Assembly (NCBI GenBank): GCA_024408655.1
Contig: JAKSUV010000003.1
Coordinates: 74,674 to 138,673 of the forward strand
Direction of reading: 5' to 3'
From: Bacilli bacterium
GTDB lineage: Bacteria; Bacillota_I; Bacilli_A; RFN20; CAG-826
DNA: 64,000 nt
The translations under genes were made by a program, and so were the position numbers. Numbering within the stretch: position 1 is the first letter of the stretch; every line of letters begins with the position of its first letter. The notes beneath the pieces are model-generated. The model made no database searches. It saw nothing but the letters and a program-made list of their open reading frames with translations, and was not told where the DNA came from. This document shows positions 51,814 to 64,000 of the stretch, in pieces.

Positions 51814-53538
51814 ATGGAAATTAGTAAAGATATTCTTAATCATAGTAGCGCGCATTTATTAGCGCATGCTATCCATCGTCTTTATCCCAAAGCGTTATTC
51901 GCGATTGGACCAAGCATTGATGAAGGCTTTTATTATGACATTGATTTTAACGATGTCGTTTTAACAGAAAACGATTTCGCCAAAATTGAAGCGGAAATGA
52001 AAAAGATTGTGAAAGAAAATATTAAAATAGTCCGCCAAGAAATTAGTAAAGACGAAGCGCTTAAATTATTCAAAGATAATCCGTATAAAACCGAACTCAT
52101 TAAAGAACTTAAAGACGATGAAAAAATTTCGATTTATACCCAAGGTGACTTCACCGATTTATGTCGTGGTCCCCATGTTGGTTATACAGGTAATCTTAAA
52201 CATTTTAAACTCCTTAGTTTAGCTGGCGCTTATTGGCGGGGTGATAGTAAGAATAAACAGCTCACAAGAATCTATGGCACAAGTGCGAAAACTAAAGAAG
52301 AATTAGATAATTATCTAAAACTCCTAGAAGAAAGAAAAGCGCGTGACCACCGGAAACTTGGTAAAGAGATGGGTTTATTTATGATCTCCGAATTTGGCCC
52401 TGGTTTCCCCTTCTGGCTCCCAAAAGGGATGATTATCCGTAATGAACTCGAGAATTTCTGGTATCAAAAACACGCGGATGAAGGTTATGTGTTTGTCAAA
52501 ACTCCTACAATGCTCAGTAAAGAACTCTGGATCACGAGCGGCCATTGGGCGAACTATAAAGATAATATGTACACGAGCAAGATTGACGATAAAGAATTTG
52601 CGATTAAACCAATGAACTGCCCCGGCGGCATGCTCATTTATAAAAATGTTTTACATTCTTATAAAGATTTACCCATTCGGATGGGTGAATTAGGTTTAGT
52701 CCACCGTAACGAAGCAAGTGGCGCTCTCGCGGGCTTATTCCGCGTAAGAACCTTCACCCAAGATGATGCTCATATCTTCTGCCGGAAAGATCAATTACAA
52801 GATGAAATTAAACGGATGCTTAAACTTTACGATGAGATGTATTCGTTATTTAATCTTGATTACTCCATTGAATTATCAACGCGCCCGGAAAAGAAATATA
52901 TTGGTGATATTAAAATCTGGAACGAATCCGAAAAGATTCTTGAAGAAGCGATGAAAGCGAGTGGTAAACCCTATAAGATTAACGCGGGTGATGGTGCTTT
53001 CTATGGCCCGAAACTCGACTTTAAGATTCGTGATTCAATGAACCGGATTTGGCAGTGCGGAACTATTCAACTTGATATGAATTTACCCGAACGGTTTGAT
53101 TTAACTTATGTTGATGAAAACAATAATAAAGTTCGGCCGATTATGCTCCACCGCGCTTTATTTGGTAGTATCGAACGCTTCATTGGTATTTTAATTGAAC
53201 ACTATGGCGGCGCTTTCCCAGTTTGGCTCGCCCCCGAACAAGTGCGAGTTTTACCAGTCAATAATGAATTCCATTTAGCCCACGCTAAGAAAGTAGTCGA
53301 AGCCATGAAAGCGGAACATATCCGAGTGAAGTTAGATGATAGTAACGAAAAACTTGGTTACCGGTTAAGAAACGCTCAAGTGATGAAAGTGCCTTATACG
53401 GTCGTGATTGGTGATAAAGAAAAAGAAAACGGCACGCTTACTTACCGGAAGTTTGGCGAACAAGCACAAACAACTGTTAAACAAGACGAATTTATTAAAT
53501 TAGTTTTAGATACGATTAAGCAAAAGAAAAAAGCTTAA
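51814..53538 (+). CDS. thrS: threonine--tRNA ligase lacking the N-terminal TGS domain
   Basis: It starts directly at the editing-domain HSSAHLLAHAI motif. Class II core strings HRNEASGALAGLFRVRTFTQDDAHIF and GTIQLD are present; 574 aa. Confidence 0.93.
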   Translation: MEISKDILNHSSAHLLAHAIHRLYPKALFAIGPSIDEGFYYDIDFNDVVLTENDFAKIEAEMKKIVKENIKIVRQEISKDEALKLFKDNPYKTELIKELKDDEKISIYTQGDFTDLCRGPHVGYTGNLKHFKLLSLAGAYWRGDSKNKQLTRIYGTSAKTKEELDNYLKLLEERKARDHRKLGKEMGLFMISEFGPGFPFWLPKGMIIRNELENFWYQKHADEGYVFVKTPTMLSKELWITSGHWANYKDNMYTSKIDDKEFAIKPMNCPGGMLIYKNVLHSYKDLPIRMGELGLVHRNEASGALAGLFRVRTFTQDDAHIFCRKDQLQDEIKRMLKLYDEMYSLFNLDYSIELSTRPEKKYIGDIKIWNESEKILEEAMKASGKPYKINAGDGAFYGPKLDFKIRDSMNRIWQCGTIQLDMNLPERFDLTYVDENNNKVRPIMLHRALFGSIERFIGILIEHYGGAFPVWLAPEQVRVLPVNNEFHLAHAKKVVEAMKAEHIRVKLDDSNEKLGYRLRNAQVMKVPYTVVIGDKEKENGTLTYRKFGEQAQTTVKQDEFIKLVLDTIKQKKKA

Positions 53539-58918: not shown

Positions 58919-59080
58919 TTGACACCCTCGCTGACTTATGGTTAGATATTATTCGCATGTTGAGCATGTAGACACTTCTTGTCTAATGATTCATAAAACA
59001 AGTAGCCGACGCTATCAAGGTGAAAAGGAATCATCATAGAAGAAAGGAGTCTGCACCTTGCTTATTTGCAAAGGAGAATT
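58919..59080 (+). promoter_or_regulatory. rpsD promoter and roughly 125-nt leader (possible S4 autoregulatory site)
   Basis: TTGACA (58919-58924) - 17 nt - TGgTTAGAT. The leader has long-range complementarity TGATTC/GAATCA and CTTGT/ACAAG. The assignment rests on position only. Confidence 0.3.
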
Positions 59081-59686
59081 ATGAGATATTTAGGATCTGA
59101 TTGGAAACGCTCCCGCCGTTTAGGTTTTTCAACCTTAGAGAACGGGAAAGAAACCGCGAAACGCCCTTATGGCCCTGGCCAACACGGTGCTGACCGGCAT
59201 AAGAAAGCCAGTGAATATGGTCGCCAATTAATTGAAAAACAAAAGATGGCGCAACTATATGGCATTAACGAACGGCAATTCCGTCGTTTGTTCTTAATTG
59301 CCCGGGCGGATGAAACCGTCACCGGAATCGCTTTTTTCCGGATTCTTGAGAGCCGGCTTGATAACCTTGTTTATCGGATGGGCTTTGCCCGCACTCGTCG
59401 TGGGGCGAGACAACTTGTCACCCATGGCCACGTGATGGTAAATGGCAAAAAAACCGACATCCCAAGTTATTTATGTACAGTTGGTGATACAATCGCCATT
59501 ATGGAAAATAGCCGCAGCATGAAGGTGATCAAAGAATCATTAGAAAGTGTGAAGACTAAATTCCCGACCGTAGAGGTTGATATGAATAAGATGGAGGGTA
59601 AGTACATTCGAGTTCCTGAGCGAAACGAGTTGCCGAAAGACATTGATGAAAGCCAAATCATCGAATGGTACAACCGGCAATTATAA
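59081..59686 (+). CDS. rpsD: 30S ribosomal protein S4
   Basis: MRYLGSDWKRSRRLGFS... with an AAAGGAG SD; the track start at 59066 is TTG. Confidence 0.96.
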   Translation: MRYLGSDWKRSRRLGFSTLENGKETAKRPYGPGQHGADRHKKASEYGRQLIEKQKMAQLYGINERQFRRLFLIARADETVTGIAFFRILESRLDNLVYRMGFARTRRGARQLVTHGHVMVNGKKTDIPSYLCTVGDTIAIMENSRSMKVIKESLESVKTKFPTVEVDMNKMEGKYIRVPERNELPKDIDESQIIEWYNRQL

Positions 59687-61365
59687 TGAAAGAACAAAAG
59701 AATATTGTTTTAATCGGCTATAACGAGGGCATGTCCTCGAAATATTTGCCTGATATTGTCGCGCTCGGTTGTCACCCAGTGGTTCTATTAACCGCTAAGG
59801 CGAAAGCGCCGAAATTTGCGGTTCCCACTACATTAATTCGTGAACAAAGCACTTATCAAAAAACTTTAGCGTTAGTTAAAAGTTATCATCCATTGCTTGT
59901 TTTAGCGGGCGATGAAATGCTCGTCGAACTTTCAACGCGTTTACAAAATGATTTGCACGTTGTCGGTAACAACTATAAATATATTAAAGACGTAACCGAA
60001 AAAGGCGCGATGCATGAAGCCCTAAAGAAAGCTGGCGTTCGTTACATCCGCGGTGAAGTCGCTCATAGTGTCAAAGAAGCAATTGCGATTTACCGGAAGT
60101 TCAAAGTTAAAGAAGTTGTCTTAAAACCCCTTCGTGCCTATTCTTCAATTGGCGTCTCCTTTTGTGGTAGCGAAGAAGAATTAAAGAAGAGTGCTGAAGA
60201 TTTTTTCCGTCAAGGTATTAAGTTTGAAGATAAAGTTTTAAAACAAGAGATTCTGGTTCAAGAACGCATTCGGGGTCTAGAAAATTACGAATATTTTATT
60301 AATACAGTCTCCCGTAATGGTAAACATCGAGTGCTCCAAATTTGGCAATATGATTTTGTCGAAGTTGGCAAGAACGCACACGCTTTCGCCTGCATTCGCT
60401 CGGTTGATCACCTTGATATTGCCCACACTGCATTAGTCGATTATTGTAAGAATATTCTTGATGCGCTCCATATCGTTGATGGCCCCGCCCATACTGAATT
60501 TTTAATTGATCTCAAGGGCCCCGTGATGGTTGAAGTAAACTGCCGAATTAGTGGCGGTAATTTAACCGAAGGTTATAATGATGCGATTTTTGGTCACCAC
60601 GATACTGACCAAATTTTAAACGCATTATTGTTCCCAAAGAGTTTCCATCACCAACTAGCTCACCCCTATCACACTTATAACCATGGCATTGTGAAATTCT
60701 TTATCTCACCCGCCCAATTTACAGCGAAGTCTTATCCCGTGTTAAGCATTGTTAAACGCTTAAGAAGTTTTTACGATACACTTAGCATTCCTCGGAAAGA
60801 TGGTTTAGTAAAAAAGACGGTCGGTTTTTTCACCACGAATGGCTATGTTCGCTTATTACACCGTGATGCTAATATTCTCGAAGCGGATAACCGTTTGCTT
60901 CACTATTTAGAACAATATTTCTTCTATTTACTATACGAAAACGATCACCGCGCTGAGAATATTCCTCCCCGGGTCAATAAAGGTGCCACCGCCGATGGCG
61001 TAATAGAAAAAACCATTCGCCACGGTTTGACTTTAATGATGAATGATAGCATTAATGACAAAACGCCAAAATATGTTTATCCGACTGACATTAAACATGT
61101 AAAGGATGCATTAAGTAATTTCGCCTTTGGCGTCGTGAATTTCAAAAAGAGTTATGATTCTATGTCTCGCCAAGAATTTATCGAGGGCTTTTTAACCTTC
61201 GCCGATAAGATTCGGACGGGTGGGATGATTATGGTCTCGGAACGGAGCTGCAATCTTTTCCCCTATGGCGCACCGGGTGTAGAAATTTTACTAAAAATTG
61301 CCGGTTTTAAGATTGTGATGCCTTTAAAAGCTAACTTTGTTTGTGCCGTGAAGGAGGAACGTTAA
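59686..61365 (+). CDS. ATP-grasp ligase fused to a degenerate methyltransferase-like C-terminal domain (paralogue 1)
   Basis: 559 aa. ATP-grasp strings include VVLKPLRAYSSIGVSFC, LVQERI.G.EYFINTVS and GPAHTEFLIDLKGPVMVEVNCRISGG. The ATG shares an A with the rpsD TAA. Confidence 0.7.
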   Translation: MKEQKNIVLIGYNEGMSSKYLPDIVALGCHPVVLLTAKAKAPKFAVPTTLIREQSTYQKTLALVKSYHPLLVLAGDEMLVELSTRLQNDLHVVGNNYKYIKDVTEKGAMHEALKKAGVRYIRGEVAHSVKEAIAIYRKFKVKEVVLKPLRAYSSIGVSFCGSEEELKKSAEDFFRQGIKFEDKVLKQEILVQERIRGLENYEYFINTVSRNGKHRVLQIWQYDFVEVGKNAHAFACIRSVDHLDIAHTALVDYCKNILDALHIVDGPAHTEFLIDLKGPVMVEVNCRISGGNLTEGYNDAIFGHHDTDQILNALLFPKSFHHQLAHPYHTYNHGIVKFFISPAQFTAKSYPVLSIVKRLRSFYDTLSIPRKDGLVKKTVGFFTTNGYVRLLHRDANILEADNRLLHYLEQYFFYLLYENDHRAENIPPRVNKGATADGVIEKTIRHGLTLMMNDSINDKTPKYVYPTDIKHVKDALSNFAFGVVNFKKSYDSMSRQEFIEGFLTFADKIRTGGMIMVSERSCNLFPYGAPGVEILLKIAGFKIVMPLKANFVCAVKEER

Positions 61366-61366
61366 A

Positions 61367-63043
61367 ATGCCACAAAATAACGGAAATATCTTACTTATCG
61401 ACTGTTTTTATTCTTCACAAAAATACGTCGCTGATGCGGTTAAATTTGGTTTTATTCCTTATATTTTAACGCCTTACGGTCAAACTCGAACCACCATTCC
61501 ATTGCCACAGCAAGTACGCTTTGTAGATGGTTTTAAAGACTACCAAAAAACTTTACAACTCGTTAAGAAAATTAAGCCAAAGTTCATTTTTGCCGGCGAC
61601 GAAGAAGATGTTGAACTCGCCATGAAACTACAAAACGATTTAAAGTTACCGGGCGCTAACAAGATGCGCTACTTTCAAGAGTTAACCCATAAAGATGCGA
61701 TGCATGCCGCTTTAAAAAAGGCCGGCCTTCGTTACATTCGCGGGGAAGTTGTTCATAACGTTAAAGAAGCAGTCGCAATTTATAAAAAATTCAAAGTAAA
61801 AGCCGTCGTTTTAAAGCCTTCGCGGGGCGCCGCCTCGAAGGGCTTATCCTTCTGCTATAGCGAAGAAGAAGTAAAGAAAAATGCTACTCAATTCTTTAAA
61901 GACTTGGAAAAGATTTCAATTGATCGCTCAACGAACGGACTACTGATTCAAGAAAAAATTAGTGGGATTGAATATATCGTGAATACAATTTCTTGTAATG
62001 GCGAACACCGGATTGGCGAAATCTGGCGGTATTCGTTACACGAAACAGAGCGAGGCCACATGACTTTTACTAACGCTATCTCAGTGAACGCGCTTGAAGT
62101 CAATATGACGCAGTTAACAACTTATGTGAAGAAAATGCTTACGGCTTTACACGTTGAAAACGGTCCAGTGCATTGCGAACTCTTTGTCGATGAAAAAGGC
62201 CCAGTATTAATCGAAATTAACTGCCGTTTATCTGGTGGTGCCATCTCAATGGATTTTGCCGATTCGATTTATGGTCACCATGTAAGTGACTTAGTGTTCT
62301 TGTCCTTACTTTTCCCCAAGGACTTTAAGAATTGGCTCAATTATCCGTATTATACCTACCAAAAAGGTTATATCGAAGTGATTAACGCTCCACGGGCGTT
62401 TACCGTAAAATCTCGGCCAATTTCAAGTATCTTAAAACGTTTACCAACGATTTACGATATTCCAAAGAAAATTAAAACCGTTGAAAAGACGCAGGATCCG
62501 ACTTGCTTATCATCTAATGTCGGTATCACCCACCTATTAAGTGCGGATGTCAATGCGGTTGACCGTGATTCCGCATTCTTAGAAAAGATTGAGAAATATT
62601 TCTTTTATTTGCTCCTAGAAGACGTTGACCATAGTAAAGAAGATATTCCGCCGATGAAAGCGGTTGGTAAAACCGCTGATGCGATTATCGAAGATATTCG
62701 TTCGCGCGGTTTAACTTTAGTCCTTAATGATAAACGTGGACCGATTGGGATTGACTATGTCACGACGACCGATTTAAAACATGTTAAACAAGATTTAGGT
62801 AACTACGCGTTCGGAATTATTAATTTAAAACAAACCTATCAACATATCTTACGCGAAACGTTAGTCGAAAATATGCTTACCTTTATGGAGAAAATTCGGA
62901 TTGGCGGCATGATTATCGTTTCGGAAAGAAGCTGTAACATCTTCCCCTATGGTGAAGCGGGAATCGAAGTTTTACTGAAAGTCGCTGGCTTTAAAATCAT
63001 CTTGCCAGAAAAAGACGGCTACATTTACGCAGTTAAAGAATAA
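61367..63043 (+). CDS. ATP-grasp ligase fused to a degenerate methyltransferase-like C-terminal domain (paralogue 2)
   Basis: 558 aa, collinear with paralogue 1 over its whole length. A GAAGGAGG SD is present and the start lies 1 nt after the upstream stop. Confidence 0.7.
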   Translation: MPQNNGNILLIDCFYSSQKYVADAVKFGFIPYILTPYGQTRTTIPLPQQVRFVDGFKDYQKTLQLVKKIKPKFIFAGDEEDVELAMKLQNDLKLPGANKMRYFQELTHKDAMHAALKKAGLRYIRGEVVHNVKEAVAIYKKFKVKAVVLKPSRGAASKGLSFCYSEEEVKKNATQFFKDLEKISIDRSTNGLLIQEKISGIEYIVNTISCNGEHRIGEIWRYSLHETERGHMTFTNAISVNALEVNMTQLTTYVKKMLTALHVENGPVHCELFVDEKGPVLIEINCRLSGGAISMDFADSIYGHHVSDLVFLSLLFPKDFKNWLNYPYYTYQKGYIEVINAPRAFTVKSRPISSILKRLPTIYDIPKKIKTVEKTQDPTCLSSNVGITHLLSADVNAVDRDSAFLEKIEKYFFYLLLEDVDHSKEDIPPMKAVGKTADAIIEDIRSRGLTLVLNDKRGPIGIDYVTTTDLKHVKQDLGNYAFGIINLKQTYQHILRETLVENMLTFMEKIRIGGMIIVSERSCNIFPYGEAGIEVLLKVAGFKIILPEKDGYIYAVKE

Positions 63044-63066
63044 GCACCATTCGGTGCTTTTCTTTT
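63043..63066. terminator. bidirectional intrinsic terminator (ATP-grasp operon / apt)
   Basis: AGCACC-ATTC-GGTGCT followed by TTTTCTTTT. Confidence 0.75.
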
Positions 63067-63583
63067 AGATTTTATATTTGACTAGTGAATGGATTTCAAC
63101 CGGCGCTAATTTTTTGCGTGCTTTTAAACTCGTTAATTCGACTAAGAAAGAATAACCAATCAGGGTCGCTTTATTCTTTTCGACCATTTTGGTCATCGCA
63201 ATTGCGCTTCCACCCGTTGCTAATAAATCGTCAACAATTAATACGCGGTCCTTCACTGATAACATATGCGGTGGAATCTCTAAAGTGTTTTCCCCATACT
63301 CTAAATCATAGGAAACGCTTGTTCCCACGAAGGGAAGCTTACCTGGTTTACGAGCGGCCACCACACCCGCTTTTAAGCGTAATGCGACCGCGGTCCCAAA
63401 GAAGAAACCCCGTGCATCAGCGCATAAAACTTTGGTTACACCCCGATTTTTAAATTGAGCGGTCATGATGGTAATGACTTCTTCAAAAGTTTTATAATCG
63501 CTAAGAACTGGCATAATATCTTTAAACGAGATACCGGGTTTTGGCCAATCCTTACGAACCACAATCAATTTCTTTAATTCCAT
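63065..63583 (-). CDS. apt: adenine phosphoribosyltransferase
   Basis: PKPGISFKDI and the PRPP motif VLIVDDLLATGGSA. Confidence 0.93.
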   Translation of the reverse strand: MELKKLIVVRKDWPKPGISFKDIMPVLSDYKTFEEVITIMTAQFKNRGVTKVLCADARGFFFGTAVALRLKAGVVAARKPGKLPFVGTSVSYDLEYGENTLEIPPHMLSVKDRVLIVDDLLATGGSAIAMTKMVEKNKATLIGYSFLVELTSLKARKKLAPVEIHSLVKYKI

Positions 63584-63613
63584 ACCCCGATATATTATCA
63601 TATATCTAGTTAT

Positions 63614-64000
63614 ATGACTATCTTAATTCAAGGGGCAATGAAGAAAGAAATTAATGAACTCATTAAAGTCTTTTCGCTAAAACTTAAACGACACGAAGGT
63701 TACCAATTTTATCGCGGCCATCATCTCATAGTTTCTTTAACTAAAATCGGTACGGTGAACGCGAGTAAAGCCACGCGTCTTGCCATTAAGTATTATCGTC
63801 CCACCCATGTCTTTAATATTGGCCTATGCGGCGCCCATGTAAAAAATCTTCACCCAAATCACTTAATTATTGGTGACGTTGTCACCTACATTAAAGCAAA
63901 ACAGGAACGGCTAATTTTAAAAGGTACACCGAGTCTAATTCGTTTAGTAGACCAAATCCCTACGAAATTAAAACTGACACACGCGATTATGGGGAGCGCG
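63614..64000 (+). CDS. mtnN: 5'-methylthioadenosine/S-adenosylhomocysteine nucleosidase (3' end outside the window)
   Basis: MTILIQGAMKKEINEL... and NIGLCGA. The ORF runs in frame to the window edge. Confidence 0.75.
   Translation, partial: MTILIQGAMKKEINELIKVFSLKLKRHEGYQFYRGHHLIVSLTKIGTVNASKATRLAIKYYRPTHVFNIGLCGAHVKNLHPNHLIIGDVVTYIKAKQERLILKGTPSLIRLVDQIPTKLKLTHAIMGSA

Follow-up and report, generated by a model that had tools for sequence, protein, structure and literature searches.

Two L-amino acid ligase-like ATP-grasp genes with a degenerate methyltransferase-like domain behind rpsD in a clade of gut Bacilli

What do two paralogous ATP-grasp enzymes make when their genes follow directly on that of ribosomal protein S4, and why do they stand there? 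The question is raised by a 64,000-nucleotide stretch of the genome of an uncultured Bacilli bacterium of the gut (assembly GCA_024408655.1, contig JAKSUV010000003.1, positions 74,674 to 138,673 of the forward strand; hereafter the window), in which rpsD is followed by two long open reading frames (ORFs), designated here ORF-A and ORF-B. Our preferred answer, to which we give a probability of about 0.6, is that ORF-A and ORF-B are diverged paralogs within an uncharacterized subfamily of L-amino acid ligase (Lal)-type ATP-grasp enzymes, and that they act as small-molecule peptide ligases that borrow the expression of rpsD and whose product is probably exported. The chemistry would be of a known type, and it is the architecture, the distribution and the capture by a ribosomal operon that are new.

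An earlier annotation of this DNA, made without database searches (the sequence-only reading), had likened the N-terminal 400 or so residues of both proteins to L-amino acid ligases and other ATP-grasp carboxylate-amine ligases, a placement on which Pfam, NCBIfam, PDB sequence and Foldseek comparisons all agree. The Pfam family ATP-grasp_4 (PF13535) is matched by ORF-A and ORF-B at 49 and 59 bits, respectively, against a cutoff of 27. The best NCBIfam matches, PRK07206 ("hypothetical protein") at 197 and 193 bits against 302 and the dapdiamide ligase DdaF at 77 and 104 bits against 840, lie below their cutoffs, as does the alanine-anticapsin ligase BacD at 16.9 bits against 850, so that neither protein scores as a named Lal equivalog. 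In a phmmer search of PDB sequences the top chain is 30vh, an "L-amino acid ligase," with an E-value of 1.6e-29 over residues 5-407 of ORF-A and 3.6e-25 with ORF-B, and the next matches are BL00235 and BacD. For ORF-A, AlphaFold2 with 24 homologs as input gave a confident model, with a mean predicted local distance difference test (pLDDT) score of 89.6 and a predicted template modeling score (pTM) of 0.87, and a Foldseek search with this model returns BL00235 first (3vot, E-value 4e-25, TM 0.79), followed by YwfE/BacD (3wnz and 3vmm) and RizA (4wd3). The Lals are ranked above PurK and the biotin carboxylases, and every top match is an ATP-grasp enzyme. The Lys of VV[LI]KP, QE[RK]I, HxE and E[VI]NCRxSGG are retained in ORF-A, ORF-B and their orthologs, and because these canonical ATP-grasp motifs are kept, both enzymes look catalytically competent. 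Profile, fold and the Lys, the hinge Glu and the ExN plus Arg residues place both proteins within the ATP-grasp superfamily; the three-domain architecture, together with the closest sequences and structures, places them in the Lal group.

Compared with the known Lals (BacD/YwfE, BL00235, RizA/RhiM, RhiC, and TabS), residues 1-~415 of ORF-A and ORF-B have the same three-lobed fold and the canonical ATP/Mg motifs, although identity in the structural alignments is only 14-17%, each protein falls under the NCBIfam cutoff of every named Lal, and each carries an extra methyltransferase-like domain of ~125 residues, one not described for Lals. There are also no genes for an unusual "warhead" amino acid nearby, and the two genes lie within a ribosomal-protein transcription unit. 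The closest solved homolog by sequence, 30vh/30vq (419 residues), lacks the C-terminal domain, and in 30vh an Ala stands at the position of the ExN Asn of the ORF-A/ORF-B family. As for the sequence-only reading's statement that it could name no characterized family with this architecture, our searches bear it out.

The C-terminal domain is what sets the family apart. The last ~125 residues, modeled alone, give a pLDDT of 88.9, and the model has a Rossmann-like methyltransferase fold: its best Foldseek match is the SAM-free methyltransferase-like domain of anamorsin (PDB 4m7r; E-value 8.7e-6, query-normalized TM score (TMq) 0.59), and the best 50 of 80 matches at E-values of 0.001 or below, whose TMq is 0.41-0.59, are without exception methyltransferases of class I or domains that resemble them. 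Anamorsin is otherwise unlike the two ligases in having no detectable sequence similarity to their domain and in working in eukaryotic Fe-S assembly. Its N-terminal domain is described as methyltransferase-like only, and not as an active S-adenosylmethionine (SAM)-dependent enzyme. SAM motif I (E/D-x-G-x-G-x-G) is absent from the domain of ORF-A and ORF-B, where G-[LAST]-T-L-x-x-x-D stands in its place, and no Pfam family is matched by the domain at E-values up to 1. When 1.84 billion representative proteins were searched with a profile of the domain, the matches came to 109 clusters (50% identity), all of them in this fusion family; every full-length match is ~500-580 residues long and carries the domain at the C terminus. 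More distant homologs (P0034-P0036) of ~680 residues, in which the Lal part is 28-30% identical, have the same domain order with a genuine SAM-dependent methyltransferase in the same position; these retain the LDCPCGDG SAM motif and a full methyltransferase of ~210 residues, whereas the domain in ORF-A and ORF-B is shortened and the motif is gone. An hhalign comparison of the two weakly aligns a block at the GG(R/M)(L/I) strand, with a probability of 47% and an E-value of 1.9e-4. From the fold match, the lost SAM loop, the true methyltransferase in the distant homologs and the fusion-only occurrence, the domain is predicted to be a vestigial methyltransferase domain, confined to this fusion family in the collections searched, and its role would most likely be in substrate handling, oligomerization or regulation rather than in methylation. 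The best profile match of the domain in the PDB, an N-terminal docking domain of a nonribosomal peptide synthetase, is non-significant (E-value 0.12) and was judged to be due to chance. As a separate observation, nonribosomal peptide synthetase genes lie beside or near the ligase gene at five loci, L011, L012, and L014 in Treponema and L019 and L038 in Methanobrevibacter.

Relatives of the two proteins are numerous. When GTDB was scanned with one genome for each species, 279 came to light, and a second scan, of metagenome contigs, gave at least 218; all are 31-36% identical to ORF-A and ~560 residues long, and they come overwhelmingly from rumen or other herbivore-gut assemblies. Because none of the metagenome relatives exceeds 36% identity to ORF-A, the metagenomes scanned hold no further members of the ORF-A/ORF-B clade. 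Methanobrevibacter accounts for 45 of 84 full-length copies, with several per genome, and the other carriers are Prevotella and other Bacteroidales, Treponema, Selenomonadales, Synergistales, Lachnospiraceae, Anaerovoracaceae, and Mogibacterium. Among the cultured carriers are Treponema sp. JC4 (L011), Prevotella sp. tf2-5 (L075), and Methanobrevibacter isolates. Homologs in different phyla can be as much as 67% identical, which indicates horizontal transfer. A role in pseudomurein formation was considered, since an ATP-grasp orthogroup lies within a gene cluster specific to pseudomurein-containing archaea (PMC11915815), and it was rejected because the present family is patchily distributed and is not that orthogroup. 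We found no literature on the family, no paper that ties L-amino acid ligases to Methanobrevibacter, none on PDB 30vh, and nothing relevant among the top matches of a literature search for ATP-grasp enzymes together with rpsD or S4. In the plasmid collection a tblastn search returned distant Lal-only homologs alone, in Streptomyces, Pantoea and others, and the PADLOC anti-phage models matched 0 families at E-values up to 0.01.

The neighbors of the family point to export. The adjoining ORFs were clustered, and 124 immediate neighbors were scanned against Pfam; MatE was found 29 times, MFS_1 10 times, PTR2 three times and ABC twice, and no other family more than three times, so that among these neighbors there is no recurrent biosynthetic partner gene. 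A MATE, MFS or POT transporter adjoins the ligase at 40 of 84 genome loci and, independently, at 36 of 77 metagenome loci, and the usual partner is a MATE protein of ~577 residues with a C-terminal extension of unknown type. The adjacency of the bacilysin ligase BacD to the exporter BacE resembles many of these loci. In several other lineages the ligase gene occurs as tandem duplicates that are 50-89% identical, and most family members are single-copy. For the distant P0034, a Lal with a true methyltransferase, the neighbors (a periplasmic amino-acid-binding protein, a protein of unknown function, and an aminotransferase) are uninformative. As a side observation on the MATE partner (L009, L010, L012, L023, L024, L069, and ~25 other loci), its extension is cytoplasmic, is ~120 residues long and has no Pfam match; by eye it is like an anti-sigma or GHKL-type domain, and a SpoIIE/PP2C-type phosphatase also lies nearby in six loci, which hints at regulated efflux.

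We turn now to the rpsD locus itself (Table 1). The identification of rpsD is given by the NCBIfam model for 30S ribosomal protein S4 (247 bits against a cutoff of 116). Its TAA occupies positions 59684-59686, and the final A doubles as the A of the ORF-A ATG (TAATG, caattaTAATGaaa); the TAA of ORF-A, at 61363-61365, is followed by one base and then by the ORF-B ATG at 61367 (TAA-A-ATG). The sequence upstream of the ORF-A ATG contains no Shine-Dalgarno (SD) motif. BLASTP aligns ORF-A and ORF-B collinearly from end to end, with 47% identity over 548 aligned residues and an E-value of 1e-173. The terminator that closes the unit was found by a terminator scan and consists of an AAGCACC-ATTC-GGTGCTT hairpin and a T-run; the sole other plus-strand terminator-like site between 59081 and 63042 is a weak one at 62273-62291, with three G-C pairs and a poor T-run, and the total of seven terminator-like sites in the region is close to the 5.7 expected from shuffled sequence. 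A consensus promoter scan found no plus-strand promoter-like site between 59000 and 62300. In these respects the sequence-only reading was accurate: the stop-start overlap with its coordinates, the 1-nt spacing and the motif ahead of ORF-B were confirmed, the strings that it quoted as shared by the two proteins all fall within the alignment, and its statement that no hairpin with a T-tract occurs before 63043-63066 holds apart from the weak site given above.

Table 1. Coordinates in the window of the rpsD-ORF-A-ORF-B unit and of adjoining or overlapping features.
Feature	Position	Strand	Remarks
rpsD promoter-like element and structured 5' leader	58919..59080	+	Putatively the only promoter and leader of all three genes (rpsD, ORF-A, ORF-B)
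rpsD, 30S ribosomal protein S4, 201 aa	59081..59686	+	Pfam Ribosomal_S4 and S4 domains; NCBIfam PRK05327
Mosaic block, approximate limits	59450..62700		rpsD 3' third, ORF-A, and most of ORF-B; far more diverged than flanks
ORF-A, 559 aa	59686..61365	+	Predicted Lal-type ATP-grasp ligase with C-terminal methyltransferase-like domain
ORF-A ligase part	59686-~60930	+	aa 1-~415
ORF-A degenerate methyltransferase-like domain	~60979-61362	+	aa ~432-559
Shine-Dalgarno motif of ORF-B, GAAGGAGG	61350..61357	+	Within ORF-A 3' end; kept in HF343
ORF-B, 558 aa	61367..63043	+	Paralog of ORF-A; ligase part aa 1-~415
ORF-B C-terminal methyltransferase-like domain	~62660-63040	+	aa ~432-558
Intrinsic terminator, hairpin and T-run	63042..63066	bidirectional	Closes rpsD-A-B; shared with convergent apt; same in HF343
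apt	63065-63601	-	Convergent to rpsD-A-B

Two metagenome-assembled genomes share this arrangement, the closest relative, "Bacilli bacterium Horse_feces343" (HF343; locus L001), and the more diverged Horse_feces347 (HF347). HF343 has the layout of the window (infC-rpmI-rplT, thiI, iscS, ezrA, then rpsD-A-B, then apt), its ortholog of ORF-A is 83% identical, and conservation between the two extends to both gene junctions, TAATG and SD-TAA-A-ATG, and to the terminator. In HF347, where S4 is 81% identical and the orthologs of ORF-A and ORF-B are 54% and 43-44% identical, one contig carries rpsD, a 22-nt spacer and the A ortholog. Another starts within A and continues through B to an MFS gene in convergent orientation and apt; the A protein sequence is where both contigs overlap. 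HF347 also settles the start of ORF-A, the frame of which extends upstream in the window to an ATG at 59665 that arises from conserved Glu-Trp codons of S4; the HF347 counterpart of this ATG meets a stop two codons on, ahead of the ligase gene, and 59686 is therefore taken as the true start. In a neighbor-joining tree the three A and three B proteins form sister clades with 100% bootstrap support each, from which it follows that the duplication is older than the split between the window and HF347, and both copies have been retained behind rpsD since before that split.

The thiI-iscS-ezrA-rpsD synteny is also found in three relatives that have no ligases and whose S4 is 75-82% identical, and in the two of these that were scanned (L088 and L089) a strong terminator lies 14-21 nt past rpsD. 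A terminator abuts rpsD only in ligase-free relatives. Most simply read, the ligase pair entered, in a single clade of gut Bacilli, between the stop codon of rpsD and the terminator of that gene. In one ligase-free relative an MFS gene directly past the rpsD terminator is 69% identical to the MFS gene behind the ligases of HF347, and the latter is thus not specifically linked to the ligases, as it is also present where they are missing. Both the layout in the two further genomes and the restriction of a terminator behind rpsD to ligase-free relatives favor the single transcription unit that had been proposed from the window, and rpsD, ORF-A and ORF-B look like one unit. A tblastn search with S4 of 170 loci, ~160 of them ligase-bearing, found rpsD adjoining a ligase gene only in the window, HF343, and HF347. 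The linkage is therefore real but clade-specific, and the question of its conservation, which the sequence-only reading had posed, receives a divided answer, positive for HF343 and HF347 and negative for the ~160 other family loci. The ligase genes are host-like in GC content and in GC content at third codon positions (GC3), which argues for long residence, and with dN/dS against HF343 of 0.06 for ORF-A and 0.08 for ORF-B they are under strong purifying selection.

Upstream of rpsD, a TTGACA at 58919-58924 is followed ~17-18 nt downstream by a -10-like T(T)AGAT(A), both read by eye. The leader is 99% identical between the window and HF343, compared with 77-91% for coding DNA, and blocks of it are conserved in five related genomes, the ligase-free ones included. 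RNAalifold predicts a long stem-loop in the leader with 31 pairs, nine of which show compensatory changes. Rfam has no match for the leader at E-values up to 1, nor for the whole window at gathering thresholds, and the element is probably an S4 autoregulatory leader outside the present coverage of Rfam.

The comparison with HF343 also reveals a mosaic. In a sliding 150-nt window, identity is 65-87% within the block listed in Table 1 and 87-99% in the flanks, and the boundaries are sharp, one inside rpsD (~59,450) and the other inside the C-terminal domain of ORF-B (~62,700). Likewise, dS is 1.4-1.9 for the ligase genes and ~0.5 for ezrA, rpsD, and apt. This pattern suggests allelic replacement through recombination with a diverged lineage of the same rpsD-A-B layout, in which case further, unsampled lineages would carry rpsD-A-B.

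Taken as peptide ligases that borrow rpsD expression, each enzyme would spend ATP on converting the carboxylate of its first substrate, a free amino acid or a small acid, to an acyl-phosphate and would then join the activated acyl group to the amine of another small molecule, so that ORF-A and ORF-B may make two different dipeptide-like products or may act serially to give a tripeptide. The best precedent for such a tandem pair is RhiM and RhiC of rhizocticin biosynthesis, two Lals of one locus that build a tripeptide stepwise (PMC13579937). Unlike ORF-A and ORF-B, the rhizocticin enzymes belong to a phosphonate cluster and use a phosphonate amino acid substrate, are not close paralogs of each other and have no methyltransferase-like domain. 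Transcription of both genes would start from the rpsD promoter and leader, the pair having no promoter of its own because of its insertion ahead of the terminator of rpsD. ORF-A, without an SD motif, would be translated through termination-reinitiation at the TAATG, and ORF-B from its own GGAGG; reinitiation together with transcription from rpsD would tie expression to S4 synthesis, making it growth-rate-linked and probably subject to S4 autoregulation. The product would be a small exported metabolite and not a modified ribosomal protein, export being most likely since the only recurrent neighbor of the family is an efflux-type transporter.

Several considerations weigh against this interpretation. 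The predicted chemistry of ORF-A and ORF-B derives wholly from the fold. As the ligases are not accompanied by genes for making an unusual substrate, their surroundings give no clue to what they ligate. The phosphate loop of ORF-A is Gly-poor and Ser-rich (RAYSSIG), with a three-residue insertion in the window and HF343, and its activity may be altered. No transporter adjoins rpsD-A-B in the window, and about half of the family loci are without an adjacent transporter. The promoter at 58919 was recognized by eye and from its conservation, and the consensus promoter scan did not flag it.

One alternative, which the sequence-only reading had put forward, is that ORF-A and ORF-B form an obligate hetero-oligomeric ligase with one product. 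The tight coupling of the two genes across a 1-nt spacer would suit such an enzyme, as would the persistence of both paralogs side by side since before the split between the window and HF347, and other lineages also have tandem pairs drawn from two clades (P0008 and P0011 in L086). Most members of the family, however, are single-copy, which implies that the enzyme works without a paralogous partner, and tandem duplicates have arisen independently many times, a pattern of diversification. Moreover, both paralogs have complete catalytic motifs, and their unlike translation signals, none for ORF-A and a strong SD motif for ORF-B, argue against a 1:1 stoichiometry. We therefore regard an obligate heteromer as unlikely.

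A second alternative is resistance or detoxification, in which the ligase would conjugate a toxic amino-acid analog, such as a plant non-protein amino acid or the warhead of a "Trojan-horse" peptide, and the transporter would expel the conjugate, the function being constitutive here through rpsD. The link of the family to MATE, MFS or POT transporters fits this idea, as do the lack of warhead-biosynthesis genes alongside, the many copies per Methanobrevibacter genome, and the patchy spread across phyla and domains, which in the collections scanned is confined to herbivore guts and in which identity from one phylum to another is as high as 67%. The allelic replacement proposed for the locus is typical of genes under ecological selection. 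The evidence is circumstantial throughout, the operon of the window has no transporter of its own, and we know of no ligase-based detoxification of amino acids of this kind, so that we rate the possibility as quite unlikely.

Far less credible is a RimK-like modification of S4 or of another ribosomal protein, though it would account for the rpsD linkage and had been offered by the sequence-only reading on the analogy of RimK. In favor of it are the translational coupling of the ligases to rpsD, conserved in three genomes, and the position of some Prevotella homologs (L049, L075, and L084) directly beside a 719-residue EF-G paralog on the same strand, a second translation-related neighbor in the family that may be coincidental. 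Some Lal-like ATP-grasp enzymes, such as PGM1, are also able to take peptides as nucleophiles. The analogy fails at several points. The RimK family model TIGR00768 (rimK_fam) scores 17.7 bits with ORF-A and 13.5 with ORF-B against a cutoff of 143.4, Pfam RimK is matched by neither, and by fold and nearest sequences the two proteins belong with ligases of free amino acids. RimK, the S6 glutamate ligase, shares with them the ATP-grasp superfamily and a ribosomal-protein connection, but it belongs to another ATP-grasp family, is ~300 residues long, has no Lal N-domain and is not inserted in this way in the operon of its target. Nor do the genomes favor the idea, as rpsD adjoins none of the ~160 other family loci, equally related genomes carry S4 without the ligases, the dominant neighbor of the family is an efflux transporter and not a ribosomal gene, and archaea also carry the family in abundance, with no S4 gene beside the ligase at the archaeal loci examined.

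That the rpsD adjacency is meaningless and the genes are decaying or silent passengers, as the limitation of the linkage to one clade and the missing SD motif of ORF-A might suggest, is very improbable given the strong purifying selection, the intact frames and catalytic motifs in three genomes, the conserved TAATG junction, ORF-B SD motif and terminator, and the host-like GC and GC3.

If the interpretation as small-molecule peptide ligases that draw on rpsD expression is correct, the Lal with a vestigial methyltransferase domain defines an uncharacterized and easily recognized family of ~560-residue proteins, with ~109 clusters at 50% identity, that is common in rumen and hindgut microbes, including multi-copy methanogens, and whose product may be a peptide metabolite that is exported and plays a part in gut microbial ecology. 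The rpsD locus would be a clean natural case in which the interval from a ribosomal-protein gene to its terminator has captured accessory biosynthetic genes, and such capture with translational coupling would be a route to constitutive, growth-rate-linked expression. Stand-alone Lals are useful biocatalysts for dipeptide synthesis, and new specificities would be of practical value; the locus has no bearing on a long-standing open question. One may speculate further, and only tentatively, that the Lal and its pseudo-methyltransferase, usually with a MATE exporter, form an unrecognized system that different phyla, and likewise Bacteria and Archaea, exchange with one another in herbivore guts, that it makes or detoxifies and then exports a small peptide-like metabolite, that the duplicated pair of this Bacilli clade has become part of the S4 autoregulatory unit such that metabolite output tracks ribosome synthesis, and that the degenerate domain is a new substrate-recognition or regulatory module.

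Some minor observations concern the surroundings of these loci. Within the window, a 574-residue ORF upstream of rpsD was considered as a MATE-like partner and rejected, as it is threonyl-tRNA synthetase (51,814-53,538), with Pfam tRNA_SAD, class II core and anticodon-binding domains and no N-terminal TGS domain. Downstream of rpsD-A-B (63,065-64,000 in the window and 9,383-11,084 in L001) lie apt and a gene like that of methylthioadenosine/S-adenosylhomocysteine nucleosidase (PNP_UDP_1), and in HF343 luxS is downstream as well; the presence of activated-methyl-cycle genes near a dead methyltransferase domain is probably a coincidence. Finally, a Logan contig from horse feces (L003), listed under the same horse-feces assembly accession as the HF343-type pair, carries a third type of paralog (P0010), 40% identical to ORF-A, immediately downstream of genes for a Peptidase_C69 dipeptidase and a MatE protein.

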